32,000 bases of DNA from Candidatus Heimdallarchaeota archaeon B3_Heim (GCA_003144275.1 NJBF01000029.1:1-32000); one strand, 5' to 3'; positions 2,914-13,501 are shown, counted from the stretch's first letter. Made by a program: numbers and translations. The notes: generated from the letters alone by a model not told the origin.

Positions 2914-3196
2914 AGTAGAAGGATCCTCCTATTTAGAGTGTTAAGTAAGAAAGATTTTCTGGATTTCGCTAAATGCATTTTTGAAAAGCTGGTATTATGA
3001 TTATTTAGATAAAACATCGTATTAACACCATTACAGGTGCAAATTCATCTTCTGACTTGATTGATGTTGCAATAAGCAAATTTCCTAAAATTTAAAATAT
3101 AATTCAAGTGTATTCTAGTTTAGCAGTATTTCTAACTATAATAAGCCTCGTATTCAATAAAAGAAGAAAATAGAAGAGCTCATAATAACTTGGGAA

Positions 3197-3601
3197 TTAC
3201 GCTTCTTTCCAGTCCCAGATCCCCACTTTTATCCAACGGCAGTAGGCCCAGATCCATGTTTGAATCATAATTGCTGCATCATATGCAGTAAACGTGAAAT
3301 GCCAGTCTTTCTGTGGACGCAGATAACAAATTTCGGTATGGCCATACTCATCCCGTCCATAAACATGGTGTGCCCGACTGGATATTTTCGGTACAACAAT
3401 CCATGCACGTGGTGGAGCGTTAGGGTAATTGTGCGGAAATTCGATCAATACGGTGAATGTACCGTGAGCATATTGTCCAGTAGTGGAATATTTTACTTGA
3501 ACAGCAATGTTACCATTATTTAAGTAGTAAAAATCTTTTCGCGTTAACCCTGGAAATACTCCTTTCAATTCATGCAATTCGTTCTCGACAGTACGATTCA
3601 T
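3197..3601 (-). CDS. E2/UBC-fold protein (prokaryotic E2-like), paralogue 1
   Basis: FTVLIEFPHNYPNAPP matches the UBC F-x-I-x-FP-x-x-YP-x-x-PP signature. HHVY...ICYL places a Cys at the catalytic position, followed by the conserved W (KDW). Confidence 0.8.
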   Translation of the reverse strand: MNRTVENELHELKGVFPGLTRKDFYYLNNGNIAVQVKYSTTGQYAHGTFTVLIEFPHNYPNAPPRAWIVVPKISSRAHHVYGRDEYGHTEICYLRPQKDWHFTFTAYDAAIMIQTWIWAYCRWIKVGIWDWKEA

Positions 3602-3636
3602 TACCCTACTTCCTTGTTCTACTATACTCAGTAATT

Positions 3637-4071
3637 CTAAAATATATGATCAATTACACCAGCTTCTGGCCAGTCCCATACATTCGTCTTGGTCCATCTA
3701 CAATACGTTCTAAGCCAAATTTCTACCAAAAGAGCTGTTTCATAAGAACTAAAATTGAGACGCCAGTCTTTCTTTGGGCGGAGATAACAGATACTCGCAT
3801 GACCATCCTCATCCCATCCATAAACATGGGGGGTATTTTTCAGAATTTTCGGTTTTTGAACCCATACTTTGGGGGAGCCAACTGGATAATTATAGGGAAA
3901 TTCAATCAGGATATCAAAATGACCACAGGCATATTTTCCCGTAGTAATAAAGCTTAATTGAACACATTTATTTTTATTTTTAAGTTGAAGAAAATCTTTT
4001 CTTTGTAAATCAGGGAATATTTTCTTTAATTTTTCTAATTCCCTATCGACTAAATTTCCTCTTAATGACAT
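3637..4071 (-). CDS. E2/UBC-fold protein (prokaryotic E2-like), paralogue 2
   Basis: FDILIEFPYNYPVGSP, PHVY...ICYLRPKKDW. A hand ungapped alignment to paralogue 1 gives 68/134 identities (~51%). Confidence 0.8.
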   Translation of the reverse strand: MSLRGNLVDRELEKLKKIFPDLQRKDFLQLKNKNKCVQLSFITTGKYACGHFDILIEFPYNYPVGSPKVWVQKPKILKNTPHVYGWDEDGHASICYLRPKKDWRLNFSSYETALLVEIWLRTYCRWTKTNVWDWPEAGVIDHIF

Positions 4072-4116
4072 GAATTTTACACTTCAGACGTTAGTTGTTT
4101 TGAGGATTGATCCAAT

Positions 4117-5334
4117 TTACACTTCTTCAGTTTTCTTCTCTAAGTTTGGTCCGTGAAATGGACATCCTTTATCTTTCTCTAAATCTTCATAGTAAACAAG
4201 CTCAAGTCCTTCAAAATTAATTATCTCAGTATTCGGTTTCATTATATTTCTGTTGTACCAGAGATAGAAATTAAATGGAAAGTGGTACAACCTATGTTCA
4301 TGTCCTTCTAAGAGAGTTGCTAAGCAAAACTTTGAGAGAAGAATTGTCAAATTATCAATATCTAAACCCAATCCTGGTTGGGCAAGTTGCTCCTGCATAG
4401 ACCGATCGTAAACTATTTTCTTTTCCAATTCATTGGTTGTGGGAATGCTACCTTTTGTTCCTCCATCCGTTAAAGGATATGCAAGGGAGTCAGCATATAC
4501 ACAATGATAACATAAATCATCTTTACGCGGATCCACTTTAAACAACAATCCCCCTTTCACACCATCAAAGGTTCCTGCATAAATAACTGGGAACTTCAAG
4601 TCATTGGTGTGGATGAAATCATTTATAGCAAAATTAACATCATGTTCTCCAGAAACAGCTATCAGGAGATCAATATCAGTAAATAAATCCAAGAAATAAA
4701 CAGCATCAGCTTTTGTTTGTAAAACAAATTTCTTTTCTACCGTTGTTATTTCGGTTCCTGGTATTCTTGCATGAATATAGTCTTTAACTGCCCTTGTTTT
4801 ATATCTCCCAAGGTGTCCAAGATCTGAAATATGCCGAATAATATTGTGGACTTCAAGATAATCGTTATCAATAAAGATAAATTTTTTAATTCCTGTTTTA
4901 GCAAGATACAAAGCCAAAAGAGACCCACCTGATCCCATACCAATAATAGCCACTTTTTTTTCTCTTAGTATCTTTAATGGAGTTTCTTCTTGATCAATAC
5001 GTACAAATAATCGATTAAGATCAATCATTTCTATAGCAAAATCTTGGACAACAGTAATAATTTCTTCTTTTTCAAAAATTTCTATTTTAGCAATCTTAAG
5101 GGTTTTTGAATCAAGTATCAAGTTAATAAAAGGGAACTTAAGTGAGAAATTAGGATTTGTGTTTTCTAGCGAAATATATCCAATTTGTTTAACAGTATCA
5201 GAGGTAGATGATATTTCGACAAGGTGAAACACTGTAAAATCGTCAAATATTCTTCCATACAAAGGAAAAGGATCTTCCTGAAAGTTTAATTCATTTAGTT
5301 GAGCCTTAAATTCAGGATACATGAGAAACTTCAT
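4117..5334 (-). CDS. E1-like ThiF/MoeB-family adenylyltransferase with ~110-aa N-terminal extension
   Basis: KVAIIGMGSGGS (nucleotide-binding), IDNDYLEVHNIIRH, GRYKT, Zn ligands CYHC (4501-4512) and CPFH (4153-4164). ATG at 5334, five bases after the JAB stop, is preferred over the track start at 5367. Confidence 0.9.
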   Translation of the reverse strand: MKFLMYPEFKAQLNELNFQEDPFPLYGRIFDDFTVFHLVEISSTSDTVKQIGYISLENTNPNFSLKFPFINLILDSKTLKIAKIEIFEKEEIITVVQDFAIEMIDLNRLFVRIDQEETPLKILREKKVAIIGMGSGGSLLALYLAKTGIKKFIFIDNDYLEVHNIIRHISDLGHLGRYKTRAVKDYIHARIPGTEITTVEKKFVLQTKADAVYFLDLFTDIDLLIAVSGEHDVNFAINDFIHTNDLKFPVIYAGTFDGVKGGLLFKVDPRKDDLCYHCVYADSLAYPLTDGGTKGSIPTTNELEKKIVYDRSMQEQLAQPGLGLDIDNLTILLSKFCLATLLEGHEHRLYHFPFNFYLWYNRNIMKPNTEIINFEGLELVYYEDLEKDKGCPFHGPNLEKKTEEV

Positions 5335-5339
5335 TTTTA

Positions 5340-6290
5340 TCACTTTTTGTCCTGCAAAATTTGCCAAAGAGGTTGCTCCAGAAGAGAGGGGATATCATCT
5401 TCAATATCAGTTTTTAGTAGAAGCAAAAATGGATTTATTAATTCCTTGTCATTTAAAGTCTCTGCTGGGTGAGTTTTAAATGTTATATTTTTTGACATAT
5501 CCTCTGAAGAAAAATCACAAAAGATTTTACCATCAGGGAATTCTGGGGGAAAAGATATTAATATCAATAGATTTACTAATTCTAGTTGGTCTAAGAGTTT
5601 AATTGTAAATTGATATGGGAATGATAAGACTTTTTCATCTGGTGTTTGACCTGTTAACTCTTCGATCTCATCCGTTGAAGTTAAATGATCAAAAATATTC
5701 ACAAGCTCATGTTTAACCTGTGTTAAAATATCACTTGGTACTCCTTTTTCTTCCTTTAGAGGTGTAGACATTTCTGTTCCTTCAATGGTGAAAGTCAAAT
5801 TACTTTGTGGAACACGACGAGTACGGAACGAATGGTTTTCAGTAAAACTTTCATCTCCTCGGAAGTAGACTTCAATAATTGGTTCGAACTCCACCTCTGA
5901 ATTGAAATTAATAATAAATGTCAAAATTACGTCAAGATGAGAATTTTTTCTGAAAAAATCCTCTATTTGTCTATGATCTCCGTGACTGGGACCACCGTAC
6001 CCAGGGTGCTTATGCCAATTTCCTAAATACTGTTGTTTCTCTTGCGATAAGACATTTTTTGCATATTCAGGATCTATTTCAAAATAAGCAGCTTTTCTGA
6101 CACAGTTATCGTCAGGAGGGATATGAGTCCTCACAATTTTTATAGTTAGTCGTGCTTCTTCCTCAATGACCTTCCCGAACAACATTCCACCAGTTTCTAT
6201 TTCTGGCCATAGGAAACCCTCTTTTACCATCTCATCGTATGTATCCTGAGTAATGTAGATAAATATGGACTCCGCTTGATAAGAGTACAC
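5340..6290 (-). CDS. JAB/MPN+ (JAMM) metallopeptidase with a C-terminal UBC/RWD-like domain
   Basis: ETGGMLFG (catalytic Glu) and GNWHKHPGYGGPSHGD (HxH...SxxD). GTG at 6290 follows GGGGAT; the track start is TTG 6317. The C-terminal LILISFPPEFP resembles the E2 ILIEFPYNYP. Confidence 0.85.
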   Translation of the reverse strand: MYSYQAESIFIYITQDTYDEMVKEGFLWPEIETGGMLFGKVIEEEARLTIKIVRTHIPPDDNCVRKAAYFEIDPEYAKNVLSQEKQQYLGNWHKHPGYGGPSHGDHRQIEDFFRKNSHLDVILTFIINFNSEVEFEPIIEVYFRGDESFTENHSFRTRRVPQSNLTFTIEGTEMSTPLKEEKGVPSDILTQVKHELVNIFDHLTSTDEIEELTGQTPDEKVLSFPYQFTIKLLDQLELVNLLILISFPPEFPDGKIFCDFSSEDMSKNITFKTHPAETLNDKELINPFLLLLKTDIEDDIPSLLEQPLWQILQDKK

Positions 6291-6341
6291 TGATATAATC
6301 CCCAAACTCTGGATCAAAAACTAAAAAAAGAGATATTTTAC

Positions 6342-6443
6342 CTAATAATGTTTCGATATTGGTACTGTATCTTTATTCTTTTCGGCATCTTCTGTTGCTT
6401 TCTCTTTTGACTCTGTGTCTACTCTTTTAACTGGTCGAGGCAT
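6342..6443 (-). CDS. 33-aa charged peptide MPRPVKRVDTESKEKATEDAEKNKDTVPISKHY, first gene of the JAB-E1-E2-E2 operon
   Basis: GGAG lies 9 nt upstream of the ATG, with an AT-rich TATA-like region further upstream. Same strand as, and immediately upstream of, the JAB gene. Confidence 0.55.
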   Translation of the reverse strand: MPRPVKRVDTESKEKATEDAEKNKDTVPISKHY

Positions 6444-6444
6444 T

Positions 6445-6505
6445 GTATTTTGCTCCATTAGTATGTAATTAAATACAGATTTAGTATATTTATTAATCTT
6501 TACTT
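6445..6505 (-). promoter_or_regulatory. Putative archaeal promoter and RBS for the peptide-JAB-E1-E2-E2 operon
   Basis: Minus strand reads gtaaagattaataaatata...taatggagcaaaatacaATG: purine-rich BRE-like element, TATA-like box, then GGAG. Confidence 0.4.
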
Positions 6506-6604: not shown

Positions 6605-6994
6605 TTAACTTGCATATTTGGAAGGACATTTTGTACTAATCATCGAAGCCTTGAACTGCCAGATATTCGAAATTGAAAGAAGTTTTCCTTCTACAACTAC
6701 TGTCTTGTCAACTTGAAATCCTGCTGGTCTTACTATATTGTTAGCAATTACTTGAATGAATAAACTGCCATTATTTTCCACCTGAGGATCAATAATTGTA
6801 AAATGAGTAGCGTTCATCTCCGTCACATTACCCACTATTTGTATTTTACGATCAATATAGGATTCTGGTTCAGGATGATCCATTAATTCTTGTACACTAA
6901 ATATTGGCACAGAGGAGCCTGTCAACAATATTAACAATGCTCCTGCACACACTAAAACAACAATGCCTGCTGCAATATTCTTGTTATTAACCAT
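6605..6994 (-). CDS. ccmE: Cytochrome c maturation heme chaperone CcmE, CxxxY type
   Basis: N-terminal TM, OB-fold-like core (IQIVGNV...VVVEGKL), C-terminal KCPSKY. ATG 6994 follows GGAGA; the track start is 7012. Confidence 0.92.
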   Translation of the reverse strand: MVNNKNIAAGIVVLVCAGALLILLTGSSVPIFSVQELMDHPEPESYIDRKIQIVGNVTEMNATHFTIIDPQVENNGSLFIQVIANNIVRPAGFQVDKTVVVEGKLLSISNIWQFKASMISTKCPSKYAS

Positions 6995-6998
6995 TTCT

Positions 6999-9608
6999 TC
7001 AATCTCCATCATTTATCTTTTCATCTAATTGAGAATCTATTTCCTGCTCTTTTTCTTTATCAGAGTCTTTCTTAGAATAAAGGTTTTTAAATATGACATA
7101 CCTAGCTATTACCAGCGGTACAATTGCAAAATGGAGAAAAAGACAACCAACCCAGAGAATATTAATGTATGATATTAGCTTGATTTGAAGAGTAGAAGCT
7201 GCGAATATACCTGATACATTGTCTTCATACACGGCAATTGTAACGATATAGATATCGAGAAGAATATCACTGATAAGAGTGACCGATTGATCTGGTCTAT
7301 TAGCTCGATCAAACGCTAGACGGCTTAATCCATAACCAACGATTCGATTACCAGATTTAATCAAAAATACGGTATCGTATCTGACAGCATCGTGTCCAGA
7401 TTCAGGATAGGTTCGATCTATATCTGTTATTTCAATTTTTAAGGAACTACCTGGAATTGGATATTCTCCACCCTGTCTAACCTCTTGAATTTCAGTTGTA
7501 ATTGTCATATTTGCACTGGTTATTGCTCCGAGGAGAATAAGTAATATTGATAGATGTAACATAGTTTGAGATGTTTTACGAAGTAAATGCTTCTCCTCGG
7601 TCATAGTGACATTGACGAATTCATATATTAGTCCGAATACTCCAAGAAGTAATAACGGTAACACTAAATTTGCTTTGTCACTCGAAGTCCAGAAATTAGT
7701 AAGGAAGGAGATTATTGGATTTCCACTGCCAAGAAAAGAAGGAAGGGACTCATTTCGATAAAAAATACCCCCTATCATAAATACAATTCCAACAATTCCT
7801 CCTCCAATGAGTAATTGGGTCTTACGTCGAACTGTAAATCGGGGGAAGAATGTACAGAAAAATTGAGCCAATAGCATTATGCCTCCAAATAATGTTAGTA
7901 TCGTGTTGTAAAAATATATATCTATTGTAATGTCATGTACAAATCCGTCTGGTCGGTATACTTCAATGCTATAGAGCATTCGCGAGATTGCATTTTCGAA
8001 ATACACTACGATTGGGTCTGTGAGAAGATGCCCAAAAATGTCATATATAACTGGAAAAAGCACGCTGAGAATTACTATATACATTCCAATTAATAATGCA
8101 ACGTTACGTCTATATTTTGTAACAGTAGGCTCAGAACTACTCAGAAAATTATTTATTCGTTTAATCTGATCCTTCTCAAAACCGATGTAATAGAGGAGAT
8201 ATAAGAAAAATCCCAGATAAATGATTAGAGAAAAGGTCGTTGGATAAAGTATTGTTTTACTAAACGCGATACCAAACAAAAGCAGAAGATCGTACAAAAA
8301 CGAGTACACTTCAAATAGTATTGGAGCTGTAAGAAGCAAACCAATGGCGTCATAAATGACTGGAAAAAGTAACCCCAGGATCATTGTATAGGTTCCAAGA
8401 AACAATGCTATGTATGATAATTTGAGAGCAGTACTTCGAATTTTTGAGGTTGTGAAGTCAGATCTTGTTAGAAAGTATGAAATTCTCCTGAATTGACCTT
8501 TTTTAAACCCAAGGTAATGTAGGAGGAACAAGAAAATCATCATACAAATGAAGAGAAATAGCATTCTTTCATCTGGTATTACTCTTAGAATCAATTTCAT
8601 GAGAAAGCTATCTGCTGGTATGAATGTCGATAATACTTGATCTAAGGAACCTCCGGGAGAAAATGTGTGGACACTTGAAATTATTGCGCTCCGTGTTAAG
8701 TAAGTGGCAGCTAAGGCACTTAAATAAGACATACTTATAATATAATTTCCAAGGTATTCGTTTTTCCTATGATAATTTGATTTTCCATGATAGAATATAG
8801 TAAGAAATAGCCAAGGCATTAAGGAAGCTGTTTCAACAGGATCCCAAGCCCAGAAACCACCCCAACCAAGTGTGATATAGGCCCAATACGCACCGATAAT
8901 GATTCCTGAACTCATGAATAGCCAAGCAAGCGAAACCAAGAATTCAAAGAATGAGTCCAGTTTTTCTTTACCTTCAAAGTCGGGTACTTTACCATCTTCT
9001 AGAATTGATATCCGAATGAACCCAATAACCATAGGTATCAGACATAAGATATATCCGAGTAGAATCATTGGTGGATGAATGATGTTCCATATGTTCATCA
9101 AGGTAGGATTTAATCCTGTTCCATCAGCTATTGTAAACGTGTTAATTTTGAATGGATCACTCATAATTGTTAGGGTGATGAAGATAGCTATTTGAGCAGC
9201 CAAGAGGACAAATGAGCGCCAAAAAAAAGTCTCATGGGCATATTCTCGAAACATTGTTCTGAATATGAGATAGAGAACTACGCCAAAGAAAGTCCAGAAG
9301 AAATATGAGCCAGCCTGGCCTGACCAAATAGCAGATAGCCTTAGGAAGAAGTCCATACTATTGCTAACATGCGCACTCACATATACAAAACTGTAGTCTG
9401 CTGTTATTACTGAGTAACCGAAATAGAAAAATGAGACAAGTACTGCTGAGCAACCAATAATTAAACCTAATTCAGAATAAGTTTCCCAATCTTCATATTT
9501 CTCTCCGAAAATCACGAATATCGCGTCAATGATAAAGGCAATCAAGCTTACTAGAAGCAAGAGTAAACCTAAATCGATTCCAAGTGTTCCTATACCGATG
9601 AAAATCAT
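6999..9608 (-). CDS. ccmF: Cytochrome c heme lyase CcmF/NrfE family, unusually long (869 aa)
   Basis: WSGQAGS, GLNPTL...IHPP, WGGFWAWDPVETASLMPW (WWD domain), SVHTF, HLSILL. Confidence 0.93.
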   Translation of the reverse strand: MIFIGIGTLGIDLGLLLLLVSLIAFIIDAIFVIFGEKYEDWETYSELGLIIGCSAVLVSFFYFGYSVITADYSFVYVSAHVSNSMDFFLRLSAIWSGQAGSYFFWTFFGVVLYLIFRTMFREYAHETFFWRSFVLLAAQIAIFITLTIMSDPFKINTFTIADGTGLNPTLMNIWNIIHPPMILLGYILCLIPMVIGFIRISILEDGKVPDFEGKEKLDSFFEFLVSLAWLFMSSGIIIGAYWAYITLGWGGFWAWDPVETASLMPWLFLTIFYHGKSNYHRKNEYLGNYIISMSYLSALAATYLTRSAIISSVHTFSPGGSLDQVLSTFIPADSFLMKLILRVIPDERMLFLFICMMIFLFLLHYLGFKKGQFRRISYFLTRSDFTTSKIRSTALKLSYIALFLGTYTMILGLLFPVIYDAIGLLLTAPILFEVYSFLYDLLLLFGIAFSKTILYPTTFSLIIYLGFFLYLLYYIGFEKDQIKRINNFLSSSEPTVTKYRRNVALLIGMYIVILSVLFPVIYDIFGHLLTDPIVVYFENAISRMLYSIEVYRPDGFVHDITIDIYFYNTILTLFGGIMLLAQFFCTFFPRFTVRRKTQLLIGGGIVGIVFMIGGIFYRNESLPSFLGSGNPIISFLTNFWTSSDKANLVLPLLLLGVFGLIYEFVNVTMTEEKHLLRKTSQTMLHLSILLILLGAITSANMTITTEIQEVRQGGEYPIPGSSLKIEITDIDRTYPESGHDAVRYDTVFLIKSGNRIVGYGLSRLAFDRANRPDQSVTLISDILLDIYIVTIAVYEDNVSGIFAASTLQIKLISYINILWVGCLFLHFAIVPLVIARYVIFKNLYSKKDSDKEKEQEIDSQLDEKINDGD
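8010..8528 (-). repeat. Internal tandem duplication within CcmF (aa ~362-430 and ~471-533)
   Basis: LLHYLGFKKGQFRRISYFL...ALFLGTYTMILGLLFPVIYDAIGLLLTAPI versus LLYYIGFEKDQIKRINNFL...ALLIGMYIVILSVLFPVIYDIFGHLLTDPI. Confidence 0.8.
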
Positions 9609-9610
9609 CC

Positions 9611-11857
9611 TTATGTCTCCATTGTGTTCTTAGTTCGTTGTTTTCCCTGTGTTCTCCTTTTTCTCCTTTTTCCTCCTCTCTGTTTAAAGCTAGCTCTTCT
9701 CATTCCCTTTAACGTTCGACGAGCACTCTTTTTCTTATATTCAACGTAAGTATAAAGTCCTGCAGGCACAAAAATCCCAAAAATTGCGAATAATCCAATG
9801 ATTATTGAAAATGGCAAAGGTGGTTTCTCGTGACCTAAAATGTAGAAATAGGAAGCTCCATCAAAATCAAAGTTCAATTCAAAATCAATCACTTCATAAT
9901 AGTAGGCATATGTACCAGGCACACCTAGGCCTTCAGGGAAAGTAGCTGTCCATAAGTGTTCAGCTATATGAACAAATTTTACTGATTTCTCATCCTGACC
10001 AGGGAGGTGATAATAGATACGTAAATATTTGACTTCTCCTTGGATTGGTACATCTTGAGCACTGACTGTTATAGAAAATTGTGTATTAATTGGTATTTCA
10101 TATCCAGGCTCAAACCCCAACTCTGTAACAATAGGAGCCCATTCGTCAAATTGCCACAGGAAATAATATGTTGCCCGAATAACATAATTACCTAAAGTGT
10201 CATTTACAATGATATTGAAAAAGATATCTGCCCCGTCATATTGATTGGGTATTGTTGTATTATACATATTTCCAATTCGAGAATCAGGAACCATCTCTAC
10301 AAGTTCATAAGGGTTATCGTCTATTGAATAATTAAGAAATACGTTTGAGATCCCGTCTGCATCAAATGCAGCTATCATAATCGTAACAGGATCCTGAGGC
10401 CGTGGTGTAGATGGTGACCAAATTGCATTCAAAACACCTGGTTTGCTATACAGCCAAAGATTGGAGAGAGCGAAAATTGCTAGCGTTTGTGTGACGGTTA
10501 ATTTATCTTCCCAGGCTGGATCACCGAATAAGCCATCCCTGTTTGTTAATAAATTGTACCCTGAGTGTTCTGCGTCATAAAGTTTGTTTGTTAAAATTTC
10601 GACAACGTCTAAAATAATATTATAATAAACGCTCATCCCTGATATTTCGTATGCCTTATCAAGGGCCCGTATAGCATAAAATTGACGTTCAGTATACTTT
10701 TTGTCATCTCTTTCTTCATTATTATAAGAGTACGTAGCATAAAAAGCACCGAATTCGTTATCCCAGAAATTTGTCATTACTGAATTTAGAAGCAGGAAAA
10801 AGTCATCGTAATATTTTGTTTCTTCTGTAACATTATAGAGGTCTGCCAGAAATTCGAGAACAAGTGAGTTAATAAAACTATCAGATACATATGGTTCAAT
10901 AAACCAATTATCTTTATCAACACCTGTGTAGAAAAGATGAGTTGTACTATTTCGACAAGTACCATTAATGGTGTCAAAAATTCTTAGTGCAGTTGTTAAA
11001 TATTTTTCATCTGATTCTATTTGATAAAGGTCTAACAATGCATTCCCCATTAAAACATTGTGGTCAACACGGTTTGATGTAGGGGTGTAAGGATCGGCTG
11101 TATTTGGATTAATTAACGAAATTTTTCCAGTATCAGACAATAGATAAGCATAGTATCCTTTAGTCTCATTCCATGCTTCACTATGTTGATAATCGTAGGT
11201 ATCTATTGCAGTTTGTCTGTAGGTTTCATTACCAGTAATCTCGTACAAAGCTAAAAATGCTTGAATGGCTTTTGCTTGATTCCCAGGTTTTCTATACTGG
11301 TTAGTATCACTTATAAAAAATCCATTGTTAGTATCATCATATAAACTAGTGAGAAGGTAATTTGCTGTCTTTACGGCTATTTCGATGGCAAAGTCTCTCT
11401 CCGTTTGATTAATCACTGCATCTGCAAGTTTTAAAAATGCTAAAATTGCCTGAGCATTATCATATGATCGTTTAATTGTATTAATGGATGATGCTTGCCA
11501 GTGAGCATCCGCAGAACCGTAAAACCCCCCCGAAGAATTATCGAATAAGTGATCTACTAATGCGTTGGCTATTTCAACCGAATAATATAGAAAATTAGGG
11601 AAATATGCCTCAGGGTCACTTTGTGTATGTGATTCTACACCATAATGAATCGAAGATCGATTAAGTGGTTCAGAGTCAAGGTCTCCAACTAATTCTAAAC
11701 TCTGGGGACTTGTACTACTCTGGTTGAGGTTCAGTGTTGAATTGGAGTCAAAGCTGGGAAAAAGAATTCCAAGCATCAGCAATGATAGGAAAGAAATGGT
11801 GGACCATTTCTTCTTTCTAAGGCCTAGATATGTCATTTTGTGCATAAATAATTCCAT
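9611..11857 (-). CDS. Membrane-anchored surface protein: (alpha/alpha)6 six-hairpin glycosidase-like barrel (AGE/GH76/YyaL-like), Ig-like domains, C-terminal TM and basic tail
   Basis: Repeats of the form D...GGFY...K..YDNAQAILAFL.L (three or more copies); N-terminal hydrophobic segment; C-terminal TM followed by a KR-rich tail. Start is uncertain (11857/11845; the track start is 11995). Confidence 0.65.
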   Translation of the reverse strand: MELFMHKMTYLGLRKKKWSTISFLSLLMLGILFPSFDSNSTLNLNQSSTSPQSLELVGDLDSEPLNRSSIHYGVESHTQSDPEAYFPNFLYYSVEIANALVDHLFDNSSGGFYGSADAHWQASSINTIKRSYDNAQAILAFLKLADAVINQTERDFAIEIAVKTANYLLTSLYDDTNNGFFISDTNQYRKPGNQAKAIQAFLALYEITGNETYRQTAIDTYDYQHSEAWNETKGYYAYLLSDTGKISLINPNTADPYTPTSNRVDHNVLMGNALLDLYQIESDEKYLTTALRIFDTINGTCRNSTTHLFYTGVDKDNWFIEPYVSDSFINSLVLEFLADLYNVTEETKYYDDFFLLLNSVMTNFWDNEFGAFYATYSYNNEERDDKKYTERQFYAIRALDKAYEISGMSVYYNIILDVVEILTNKLYDAEHSGYNLLTNRDGLFGDPAWEDKLTVTQTLAIFALSNLWLYSKPGVLNAIWSPSTPRPQDPVTIMIAAFDADGISNVFLNYSIDDNPYELVEMVPDSRIGNMYNTTIPNQYDGADIFFNIIVNDTLGNYVIRATYYFLWQFDEWAPIVTELGFEPGYEIPINTQFSITVSAQDVPIQGEVKYLRIYYHLPGQDEKSVKFVHIAEHLWTATFPEGLGVPGTYAYYYEVIDFELNFDFDGASYFYILGHEKPPLPFSIIIGLFAIFGIFVPAGLYTYVEYKKKSARRTLKGMRRASFKQRGGKRRKRRTQGKQRTKNTMET

Positions 11858-12000
11858 CTTTCTAATTTCAGGATTAGTTCCAGTTTGTTTCGTGATTTGA
11901 TAGTGAATTTCTGATTGGGCGGGGGGATTAATGAACGAAATCGAACAACATTCAAAGCTTATACAACGAGCGAATAACGCTAACTCAACTCCCAACCAAC

Positions 12001-12020
12001 TGAAGAAAAAAAAAGAAGAA
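12001..12020 (-). terminator. T-run terminator after the multiheme cytochrome gene
   Basis: Minus strand reads ttcttctttttttttcttca, ~60 nt past the stop. Confidence 0.45.
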
Positions 12021-12076
12021 TCAGCAAATAAATGCTGATCTTATTTGAATTTATTTTAGATATTAGCTTGTCTAAC

Positions 12077-13501
12077 CTATCGTCTCTTTCTTGTGAAAAG
12101 GACGGCTAAGCTAAGGATGCCAATAAGACCTAAAACACCTATTGCAGGAGCAGATGAAGTAGTTTCTTCTTCAGTAGTTGTTTCTTCAGTGGTTGTGGTA
12201 GTTGTAGTCGTCGTTTCAGGTTCAGGGATAAGGGCATCGACAATACCGTAGGCTTCATCTAATTTAGCCAAAGCTAACTTTAGCTTGTCCTCGGCAAGAT
12301 CTCCATTATGGAATCCTGTGCTCGGTTCACCCGTGACATCGTGAGCGAGATCGGCAGCTTCATCCAGTAGATCTTCGGCGTCGCCAATTAAGGTCATGTT
12401 GACACCTTCAACTGCTTTAGCTTCGGCAATTCTACCAGAGACATTCTCTAGTTGTGTTCCATAGCTAGCAATTAAGGCTTCAGTATCACCTTGAATAGCT
12501 TCCATCCATGCAATACGGGCTGCTTCTTCACCTTCGTGACAACCAGTTTGGTTACCACAGGCATCTTCAAGAACAAGAGTCCAATTGTGCAGGATTGAGG
12601 CTTCACCAACAGTGTCGTTACCATCCCAGTAATACCCATGACAGGTAGTACAATCATCAATGATTGCGTGGGGAGTAGCAAAGGTTGTATCAGTAAGGAA
12701 TTCTACAACATCACCGTGACAGGTTCCACAAAGCTCAACAGTACCATTCTTGCGAAGTTCATGTTCATATCTAACCCCATCTTCGTTGTGGGGGTCGTGA
12801 CATGTTACACAGTCAATGTTTCCAAAGGAAAGATCTTCATAGGTACTTTCACCAGCCATACAATGCATACAATAATCAAAGTCGCCTGTAGCGGCAAGGA
12901 GATCATCGAATGATTCAGAGTGACCAGTTTGTACCCAAGTTTTTCCTCGGGATCCAGGAATGTGACATCGTCCTGAACACGTCTTCTCAAACGGAAATCC
13001 TGTACCAGGATCGGTAAAGTATGTTGCTTCTGCACCTGGTTCTTCGTGACATGCTCCACAGGATACACCTATATCCCAAACGTTCCATTCACCTGATGCA
13101 TTAACAGATGTATCATTGTAACGTTGTGTAACGTGACAACATCCACCATCGTTAATAAATTCAGTTACGTTATAGTCGTCACCACTCGTAGTGTGCCTGA
13201 TATATGTACCAGTAGCGTTCGTATAATATTGGAGAATATACGAGTGTTTCGTGAGATTCCATCCGTCTACTTCAGCCTGATGACAAGGGACACAATCGTC
13301 TGGGTGATATTCCCCAGTAACGGGATCAGCGATAGCACTATGGTCATAGCCTTCAACACTATATTTAGGATTCAGTAGTGTTGAGCTTATACCAACCGCA
13401 GCACTTGACCCAAGGAAAACGATTGCGAACCAGTAGAATAGTATTATTCTTCTACCGTTCCACTTGCTTTGGCGAACTAGAACTTCTTTTTCTTCGTTCA
13501 T
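12077..13501 (-). CDS. Cell-surface multiheme cytochrome c with NrfA/c552-like helical C-terminal domain, Thr-rich linker and C-terminal membrane anchor
   Basis: Five canonical CxxCH (C70, C148, C231, C258, C284) plus CX3CH, CX5CH, CCH and CxxCM; STGFHN; N-terminal TM/signal; ends APAIGVLGLIGILSLAVLFTRKRR. Confidence 0.88.
   Translation of the reverse strand: MNEEKEVLVRQSKWNGRRIILFYWFAIVFLGSSAAVGISSTLLNPKYSVEGYDHSAIADPVTGEYHPDDCVPCHQAEVDGWNLTKHSYILQYYTNATGTYIRHTTSGDDYNVTEFINDGGCCHVTQRYNDTSVNASGEWNVWDIGVSCGACHEEPGAEATYFTDPGTGFPFEKTCSGRCHIPGSRGKTWVQTGHSESFDDLLAATGDFDYCMHCMAGESTYEDLSFGNIDCVTCHDPHNEDGVRYEHELRKNGTVELCGTCHGDVVEFLTDTTFATPHAIIDDCTTCHGYYWDGNDTVGEASILHNWTLVLEDACGNQTGCHEGEEAARIAWMEAIQGDTEALIASYGTQLENVSGRIAEAKAVEGVNMTLIGDAEDLLDEAADLAHDVTGEPSTGFHNGDLAEDKLKLALAKLDEAYGIVDALIPEPETTTTTTTTTEETTTEEETTSSAPAIGVLGLIGILSLAVLFTRKRR
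12153..12220 (-). repeat. Low-complexity Thr/Glu linker (PETTTTTTTTTEETTTEEETTSS)
   Basis: Directly visible codon repeats preceding the anchor; typical of O-glycosylated archaeal surface linkers. Confidence 0.8.

Follow-up and report, generated by a model that had tools for sequence, protein, structure and literature searches.

How a full set of ubiquitin-type conjugation enzymes might work without an accompanying ubiquitin-like gene is the question raised by a five-gene cassette in an Asgard archaeon. The cassette occupies positions 3197-6443, on the minus strand, of a 32,000-nucleotide stretch of DNA (hereafter, the window) from Candidatus Heimdallarchaeota archaeon B3_Heim (GCA_003144275.1 NJBF01000029.1:1-32000), a member of the Hodarchaeales (Heimdallarchaeia) whose assembly comprises 3.9 Mb. 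Its co-oriented open reading frames (ORFs) encode a 33-residue peptide, a JAB protein, an E1 protein and two E2 proteins, E2a and E2b. The explanation that we favor, with a probability of roughly 0.55, is that the cassette works on its own as a conjugation system of ubiquitin type, derived from the Cap2/Cap3 lineage, in which the modifier is the disordered 33-residue peptide.

A first-pass annotation of this DNA had described five tightly spaced, co-oriented genes for a peptide, a JAMM protease, a ThiF/E1 enzyme and two Cys-bearing E2s, and this description stands. All ORFs are in place (Table 1), the gaps from the peptide gene to the E2b gene are 24, 5, 45 and 35 nucleotides, domain profiles match the four enzymes, and their catalytic motifs are intact. 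The ORF listing also agrees with the earlier observation that no ORF ending in Gly-Gly and none of beta-grasp size lies in or beside the cassette, antisense shadow ORFs excepted. Pfam and PADLOC scans of the cassette products and their neighbors found no CD-NTase, effector, ubiquitin-like protein (Ubl), RING, metallo-beta-lactamase (MBL) or DUF6527 protein.

The 33-residue ORF in the first position, which the annotation had taken to encode a disordered peptide, is a real gene under purifying selection at the codon level. Across 11 orthologous loci, 30 of its 33 third codon positions are variable, compared with eight first and four second positions, and codon differences comprise 654 synonymous and 159 non-synonymous changes. 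Because the variation is concentrated at synonymous sites, the peptide is selected as a protein. It is also the best-conserved product of the cassette: identity across Hodarchaeales species is 85-100% for the peptide, 73-93% for E2b, 58-88% for E2a, 54-76% for E1 and 41-67% for JAB. In ubiquitin systems, likewise, the modifier is more conserved than the enzymes that handle it. The peptide of the window contains six Lys and seven Asp or Glu residues and has no hydrophobic core. Judged by its sequence, it is disordered, and a beta-grasp fold would be impossible for it. Public records, where they name such peptides at all, call them 'hypothetical protein'.

Archaeal peptides, which come from Hodarchaeales, Nitrososphaeraceae and a more divergent archaeal contig (locus L025), start with MPR, have an acidic center and, toward the C terminus, share T-[VI]-P-x-x-[KH]-H-[YF] as a motif. 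Residues M1, P2, R3, K6, D19, T26, P28 and H32 are invariant. The tail beyond the aromatic residue is variable and comprises 0-14 residues. Most Hodarchaeales peptides stop at the aromatic residue, and the others add S, RN or GN; L025-type peptides have the tail NYRLKR or one of 14 residues, and the tails of Nitrososphaeraceae peptides are LLNDL, LLNDP, NDS, NGT, SDT, NDT, TLQ or DS. The window peptide ends in SKHY, that is, at Tyr33, and has no tail. By analogy, such a combination of an unchanging motif and an expendable tail is the pattern typical of a modifier precursor that is processed at its C terminus; in Bil systems, the C terminus of BilA is pre-processed by the deubiquitinase BilC (PMC10557695). 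The mature end might be the aromatic residue or the preceding invariant His. When the whole assembly was scanned, the cassette's own gene was the only ORF with the C-terminal motif at its end.

The co-occurrence of peptide and enzymes is strict. The peptide is encoded directly upstream of JAB in every contig-intact locus (11 in Hodarchaeales, 13 in Nitrososphaeraceae, and L025). The five-gene cassette is present in 12 of the 21 other species of the host genus, with a contig-truncated copy (L024) in one more, and the E2a and E2b proteins of the genus sort into two separate series of orthologues. Only the closest relatives have the flanking ccm and MoxR genes in common; elsewhere, the cassette is located at different chromosomal sites. 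The first-pass annotation had recommended gene-neighborhood analysis and had held that a Ubl carried consistently by homologous operons would speak against its reading. No extra gene family is consistently adjacent to the 26 archaeal loci, and the peptide is the constant partner of the enzymes. Because no other neighbor is conserved, the cassette is self-contained.

Outside the host genus, the cassette is scattered. E1 homologues with about 36% identity are encoded in soil Nitrososphaeraceae by a small ORF-JAB-E1-E2 cassette, and this one-E2 form is found in 14 of 238 Nitrososphaeraceae species genomes. L025 has the order small ORF-JAB-E1-E2. A set of 400 Asgard genomes that spans 85 genera has the JAB protein nowhere outside the genus of the window, so the cassette is a patchy accessory module. 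It has probably been exchanged horizontally between archaeal lineages. In a tree of E1 proteins, the archaeal cassette sequences form one clade with support of 100/100. A profile search for further peptides among 1.8 billion representatives yielded five representative clusters, all of Hodarchaeales or Nitrososphaeraceae types. In L025, the E2 (373 amino acids; L025:7494-8615) is fused to a long C-terminal region with hydrophobic stretches, which are read as transmembrane helices and suggest membrane-anchored conjugation in that lineage.

The E1 protein matches ThiF in Pfam (1.1e-23; 84 bits against a cut-off of 28) and the PADLOC E1-E2 model for CBASS (antiphage signaling systems based on cyclic oligonucleotides) at 4.1e-28. 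The nucleotide-binding and adenylation residues, which comprise the GxGxxG glycines G132, G134 and G137 and also R112, D156, D158, N164, R167 and K179, are invariant across the family. Residues C275, C278, C391 and H394, covering both CxxC motifs, align with the structural zinc site of ThiF and MoeB. In a structural model with a predicted local distance difference test score (pLDDT) of 76, residues 108-398 match UBA5, MoeB, UBA3, Cap2, Atg7 and MccB at Z 20-23; individual Z values are 22.7 for UBA5, 22.1 for MoeB, 20.7 for Cap2, 20.3 for MccB, 19.5 for PaaA, 19.2 for BubCD, 17.9 for AclA and 16.6 for Bil (8tyz). The crossover loop contains no Cys and has a conserved Tyr309. Prediction of a complex between an E1 dimer and the peptide, run with no controls alongside, scored 0.01 against a mark of 0.32 and is evidence neither way.

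The N-terminal 105 residues of E1 are placed in the model like the Cap2 linker or the N-terminal domain of Atg7, and whole-chain alignments extend over residues 1-384 with Cap2 (7to3) and 1-399 with Atg7 (3vh2), both with a high root-mean-square deviation (rmsd). Comparison of this domain with the JAB family by hhalign gave a probability of 0.1%, a profile search of PDB sequences found nothing below E 0.6, and an Atlas feature search produced weak leads only, including Cap2_linker at 0.76. An Atg7/Atg3/Atg10-like reading of the N-terminal domain and the two E2s was rejected, for the E2 profile matches canonical UBC enzymes and not Atg3 or Atg10, and the likeness to Atg7 is positional only, with an rmsd of 12.7. 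When E1 was searched against the phage collection, nothing matched, and plasmids yielded two distant ThiF matches in uninformative contexts. At residue 170 (4825-4827), more than 90% of the family has the Cys of an RHIC sequence, and the window and its close relatives P0003, P0005 and P0006 have Ser.

E2a and E2b match UQ_con, RWD and Prok-E2_E, all below the Pfam cut-off, and match the PADLOC E2 model for CBASS at 1.6e-9 and 3.1e-9. Compared with solved UBC enzymes, the profile of the E2 family matches UBE2W (1.4e-8; positions 6-119) in an alignment that pairs the His and the catalytic Cys of each (PHVY with HPHVY, ICY with ICL); both residues are invariant in 22 homologues. The two proteins are paralogues and are 52% identical. 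Precomputed matches of orthologues to the Pfam family E2-CBASS (PF26395) exist for E2a and for the Nitrososphaeraceae E2, and are weak for E2b. The C terminus of E2a (3637-3660) is GVIDHIF, which is conserved as G[VFM][ILW]DH[IL]F in E2a and not in E2b, and this His-aliphatic-aromatic end is reminiscent of the KHY with which the peptide ends.

The JAB protein matches Prok-JAB in Pfam (26.2 bits against a cut-off of 25) and the PADLOC JAB model for CBASS (1.7e-12). Its JAMM motif is intact, and the motif residues are invariant in 24 homologues. In a model with a pLDDT of 87, the JAMM domain matches PfJAMM1 and Rpn11, each at Z 15.7, and the comparison with Cap3 (9ild) gives Z 15.6 and an rmsd of 2.5 over 137 aligned residues. 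Residues 188-324 form a separate domain that is modeled with alpha-beta4-alpha topology at a pLDDT around 90. Its best structural match is a weak one, to the UEV domain of Tsg101 (Z 6.6 over 116 residues), and hhalign aligns it with the E2 family of the cassette at E 1.9e-4 and a probability of 48%, with FPPEFP and FPYNYP in register. An Atlas feature search with this domain gave no usable lead. Tentatively, the domain is probably an inactive E2/UEV/RWD-like one. This third E2/UEV-like domain, the N-terminal domain of about 105 amino acids in E1 and the conservation of a promoter-like box and a GGAG site go beyond what the first-pass annotation had described.

These features are suggestive of the following cycle. 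The peptide would be made in excess from its own promoter, and the JAMM protease would trim the tail, where one is present, at the conserved His-[Tyr/Phe]; the gene of the window already ends at Tyr33. The ThiF-type E1 would then use ATP to adenylate the C-terminal carboxylate of the peptide. Because the E1 has no loop cysteine, the acyl group might move to the catalytic Cys of E2a or E2b either directly or through Tyr309 of the crossover loop. The E2 would transfer the peptide onto amino groups of target proteins, and the JAMM protease would reverse the modification, possibly guided by the UEV-like domain. Such a cycle is favored because the cassette encodes an E1/E2/JAMM set, because the peptide is the sole constant partner and has a processed-looking end, and because Cap2 and Cap3 provide a precedent. 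The annotation had already cast the peptide as a tag or as a substrate to be modified; the strict co-occurrence, the top conservation and the C-terminal motif with variable tails speak for this idea, and the tagging of proteins, its chemical steps, its targets and its physiological role are what we infer from them.

The enzymes of the cassette clearly belong to the Cap2/Cap3 lineage known from CBASS and 6A systems, so the cassette is related to known systems and not unrelated to them. The earlier statement that the locus matches none of CBASS, Bil and the Asgard ubiquitin loci is right as far as membership goes, but its enzymes have known relatives. A PADLOC check that the annotation had recommended is in keeping with this, because the CBASS accessory models (JAB, E1-E2 and E2) match all four enzymes, and there is no CD-NTase.

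Type II CBASS (operon type 6b, Iyer et al. 2006) shares this enzyme lineage, with a JAB like Cap3 and an E1 like Cap2, and the JAMM peptidase of the cassette is of Cap3 type, its metal site intact. The substrate in CBASS is likewise not a beta-grasp protein, because Cap2 adenylates the disordered C terminus of the CD-NTase (10.1101/2022.03.31.486616; PMC10097602). However, the cassette lacks a CD-NTase (a cGAS/DncV-like cyclase) and a cyclic-nucleotide-activated effector gene. Whereas Cap2 is an E2-linker-E1 fusion, the cassette encodes its E1 and its two E2s in separate ORFs. The JAB protein has an added domain, tentatively UEV-like, and E1 lacks a crossover-loop Cys. Also, the putative substrate is a free 33-residue peptide ending in His-Tyr, rather than an enzyme with a Gly or Ala terminus.

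In 6A-MBL systems (operon type 6a), an E2-E1-JAB fusion accompanies an MBL. The cap2_3 fusion model is the best NCBIfam match for JAB, E1 and E2a, and the cassette matches are colinear with its E2, E1 and JAB segments. However, the scores against NF058523 are 17-61 bits, compared with a cut-off of 320, and the cassette genes are unfused and have no adjacent MBL gene.

Bil systems (BilABCD, types I and II; operon types 6d and 6c) resemble the cassette in having separate E1, E2 and JAB genes together with a small modifier gene, and in the pre-processing of the modifier C terminus by the deubiquitinase that the cycle above would share. The Bil E1 combines an active adenylation domain with an inactive one and with a CYS domain (PMC10557695), whereas the cassette E1 has a single adenylation domain after a 105-residue beta-rich domain and no loop Cys. 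The small gene of the cassette encodes a charged 33-residue peptide ending in Tyr, not a beta-grasp Ubl ending in Gly. Structural matches to Bil proteins are weaker than others (E1 against 8tyz, Z 16.6; JAB against 8tyy, Z 13.5). In Bub systems (operon type 6e, or DUF6527), the E1 crossover loop is also free of Cys and has a conserved Tyr, and Y370 in the loop of BubCD carries the modifier as an oxyester (PMC11601596). However, Bub systems have beta-grasp Ubls, an E2 with Ser in place of Cys, and the serine protease BubE, whereas the E2 Cys of the cassette is invariant and none of its products matches DUF6527.

More distant comparisons are also instructive. The Pup system of Actinobacteria is alike in concept, as it uses a short, disordered, charged peptide as a covalent tag, and the comparison is conceptual only. 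Pup is attached through the side chain of its C-terminal Glu by the ligase PafA, with the deamidase Dop, and no E1, E2 or JAB participates; Pup ends in GGQ or GGE, the window peptide in SKHY. MccB, which acts on MccA in the microcin C7 pathway, and PaaA are ThiF-like enzymes with an extra N-terminal domain that act on the C terminus of a very short peptide, but neither an E2 nor a JAB accompanies them, and their pathways include export and immunity genes, none of which is conserved near the cassette. Operons encoding ubiquitin, E1, E2, RING and Rpn11 in Asgard archaea and Caldiarchaeum occur in the same phylum as the host; in contrast to these, the cassette has neither ubiquitin nor RING, and its E1 clade is separate from the host's ubiquitin-type E1 (100/100). 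Among the catalogued operon types 6a-6e, Bil, Bub and CBASS, every Ubl-bearing type has a beta-grasp modifier (PMC1779556, PMC10557695, PMC11601596, PMC11601603), and no description of a peptide-bearing E1-E2-JAB system was found in the literature searched, the coverage of which is incomplete.

Relatives of the cassette also occur in bacteria. E1 homologues that include the N-terminal domain, with 25-33% identity, are found in Cyanobacteria, Bacteroidota, Caldisericota (Cryosericum), Verrucomicrobiota, Acidobacteriota, Desulfobacterota and Chloroflexota, and the usual gene order is JAB (about 320-380 amino acids), E2 (about 148 amino acids), a small ORF, and E1. The small ORF, directly before E1, encodes an unannotated protein of 60-66 amino acids in at least six phyla (L058-L105; for example, L077:4390-4581, L064:4396-4590 and L062:4426-4626). 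This protein has a short, helix-like N-terminal segment, the sequence KKLVFDPxTGELV, a C-terminal DG[FY][FA] and a variable tail of 0-10 residues. Neither Pfam nor NCBIfam has a family for it or for the archaeal peptides, and a PDB profile search with the bacterial proteins found no match. Because profile comparison finds no homology between the archaeal and bacterial small genes, the parallel between them is one of position and design only. The bacterial JAB-E2-small-E1 operons, one example of which is in Flavobacterium, may be a large undescribed sister family. In the E1 tree, the archaeal clade and three bacterial clades stand apart from the host's ubiquitin-type E1 and ThiF paralogue. Some of the bacterial relatives adjoin AAA, AbiEii-like, HerA-like or SPFH genes. 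In a Chloroflexota-type branch (L054, L057 and the P0093 contig), genes in the order E2-JAB-E1 precede those for an SPFH/Band_7 protein and for a HerA/FtsK-like ATPase of about 950 amino acids.

The cassette is probably equipped with its own expression signals. The first-pass annotation had placed it between the terminator of ccmE and a downstream T-rich tract and had given it a promoter and ribosome-binding site of its own, and each of these elements can be recognized: an inverted repeat and T-run follow ccmE, a T-rich tract that is likely the end of the transcription unit follows E2b, and a promoter-like box and GGAG are kept in orthologues despite differing flanks. The box, AAAGATTAATAAAT, precedes the peptide gene in every one of the Hodarchaeales orthologues, and it presumably acts as a promoter in the window. 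AGGAG or GGAG is found at the equivalent spot in the Hodarchaeales orthologues, and most of them have T-rich runs after the stop codon of the peptide gene. Together, the conserved box, GGAG and T-runs suggest an autonomous transcription unit. The T7 and T5 runs might act as a partial terminator or attenuator and thereby raise the ratio of peptide to enzymes, and the peptide is possibly produced in excess.

Several observations weigh against conjugation of the peptide. All characterized E1-E2 substrates end in Gly or Ala (PMC10097602), and a C terminus of Tyr or Phe (or His) is unprecedented. How the acyl group would reach E2 is not obvious when the E1 crossover loop has no Cys; the case for a UEV-like domain at the C terminus of JAB is a weak one, at Z 6.6 and a probability of 48%; and hhalign detects no similarity between the archaeal peptides and the bacterial small proteins. 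Also, canonical ubiquitin, E1 and E2 loci exist elsewhere in the genome, so a Ubl could act in trans. The enzymes might then conjugate some other substrate, such as canonical ubiquitin or the C terminus of another protein, and the peptide might be a regulator, a pseudo-substrate inhibitor or an adaptor. Canonical ubiquitin genes with UBC E2s and ThiF-type E1s lie on contigs C10 (19617-29815), C86 (27433-30031) and C57 (5171-7567), and matches to ubiquitin (PF00240) occur only on C10 and C86, with none in the window. The absence of a Gly or Ala end from the peptide fits this alternative, as does the tail of E2a, whose resemblance to the peptide end means that His-aromatic termini occur on other components. 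We nevertheless regard it as unlikely: the canonical loci have E1 and E2 genes of their own, the peptide is the only constant partner of the enzymes across different chromosomal sites and two archaeal phyla, its motif ends no other ORF in the genome, and variable tails after a conserved motif suit a processed C terminus better than an inhibitor.

Alternately, the cassette might produce a ribosomally synthesized and post-translationally modified peptide (RiPP), with the E1-like enzyme modifying the peptide C terminus in the manner of MccB, PaaA or AclA, and JAB trimming it to release a small bioactive product. The E1 resembles these enzymes about as well as it resembles Cap2 (for MccB, Z 20.3 and profile E 2e-19), it has an extra domain before the adenylation domain as MccB and PaaA do, and a short precursor gene adjoins the enzymes. 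Yet one or two E2s with invariant His and Cys are always found beside the E1, whereas RiPP pathways use no E2s, and the neighborhood has no conserved exporter, immunity gene or further tailoring gene. The peptide is also highly charged and more conserved than its enzymes, the opposite of typical RiPP cores, so that we consider a RiPP improbable. Still less credible is a regulatory leader peptide, that is, an upstream ORF or attenuator preceding a Ubl-less E1/E2/JAB module. The ORF is indeed the first of its unit and is followed by T7 and T5 runs that might terminate archaeal transcription, but all 33 residues are conserved as amino acids while synonymous sites are saturated, and the motifs are common to two archaeal phyla. 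Moreover, the Nitrososphaeraceae ORF overlaps the JAB start and has no T-run after it, and in the bacterial relatives the small gene stands between E2 and E1, within the operon. Conjugation of the peptide by the cassette enzymes remains our preferred explanation.

Table 1. Features of the cassette and its flanking signals, in coordinates of the window
Feature	Position	Strand	Details
Peptide gene	6342-6443	-	33 amino acids, MPRPVKRVDTESKEKATEDAEKNKDTVPISKHY; proposed modifier or substrate
JAB gene	5340-6317	-	325 amino acids
E1 gene	4117-5334	-	405 amino acids counted from ATG; alternative TTG start at 5367
E2a gene	3637-4071	-	144 amino acids
E2b gene	3197-3601	-	134 amino acids
JAMM/JAB metalloprotease domain	5760..6266	-	JAB residues 18-186; catalytic E41, H102, H104, S111, D114
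JAB C-terminal domain	5346..5756	-	Residues 188-324; FPxxFPxG motif, no His...Cys pair
E1 N-terminal beta-rich domain	5020..5334	-	Residues 1-105; no detectable family
ThiF/MoeB-type adenylation domain	4141..5013	-	E1 residues 108-398 (single domain)
E2a catalytic pair	His82 3826-3828, Cys95 3787-3789	-	UBC-fold
E2b catalytic pair	His79 3365-3367, Cys92 3326-3328	-	UBC-fold
Promoter-like box (transcription factor B recognition element/TATA)	6486..6502	-	TAAAGATTAATAAAT; about 45-60 nucleotides 5' of the peptide start codon
GGAG Shine-Dalgarno-like site	6453..6456	-	9 nucleotides 5' of the peptide ATG
T7 and T5 runs	6316..6329	-	Directly 3' of the peptide stop codon
T-rich tract	3155..3180	-	Downstream of E2b; putative transcription-unit end

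The genes that surround the cassette are those of ordinary metabolism, and the window contains no defense island. Upstream are ccmE and ccmF, and downstream are genes for a MoxR AAA ATPase and a DUF4129 membrane protein; the remaining genes encode a multihaem cytochrome, an MFS transporter, dehydrogenases, an OPT transporter, MsrA/MsrB and pyruvate:ferredoxin oxidoreductase. Scans of the window for tRNAs and Rfam elements found none. At 6605-13501, ccmE and ccmF lie close to the multihaem cytochrome c gene (12077-13501), an arrangement in an Asgard genome that hints at electron transfer based on c-type cytochromes. The CcmF-like protein (869 amino acids; 6999-9608) has an apparent internal tandem duplication of about 90 residues, at about 7990-8560 (residues ~355-440 compared with ~455-540), which shows both in the translation and in tblastn comparisons with orthologues, where segments overlap.

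The annotation had raised a possible role in defense, for which the genomic context offers no support: the neighbors are cytochrome c maturation, MoxR and metabolic genes, and no effector is among them. The closest characterized relatives, CBASS, 6A-MBL and Bil, are antiphage systems (PMC13276650, PMC10557695), and on analogy with them, and from the patchy, site-shifting distribution of the cassette, a defense function is a guess. A role in proteostasis or signaling is equally open.

We hold tentatively, at somewhat short of even odds, a broader proposal that disordered peptides of 32-33 residues ending in His or Tyr are covalent protein modifiers, transferred by E1 and E2 and removed by a JAMM protease, and that they constitute a family in Asgard archaea, ammonia-oxidizing Thaumarchaeota and many bacterial phyla, where the versions have 60 amino acids. 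To our knowledge, what characterized E1-E2 cascades move is a beta-grasp Ubl, or a whole enzyme in the case of CBASS, and each time the C terminus is a small Gly or Ala. If the proposal is true, the peptide would be smaller than any E1/E2-dependent modifier now known and the first to have neither a beta-grasp fold nor a Gly/Ala C terminus. The scope of ubiquitin-type chemistry would be wider than it now appears, with a Pup-like tag handled by ubiquitin-like enzymology, and the cassette might offer a compact, genetically encoded tool for peptide ligation. Its bearing on eukaryogenesis is probably small, as only one genus among the 400 Asgard genomes has it. The interest of the cassette would be high if peptide conjugation is shown, because it is an accessory module in Hodarchaeales and soil ammonia-oxidizing Nitrososphaeraceae, lineages in which the biology of protein modification and defense is almost unexplored, and it points to a large, unannotated sister family in bacteria.

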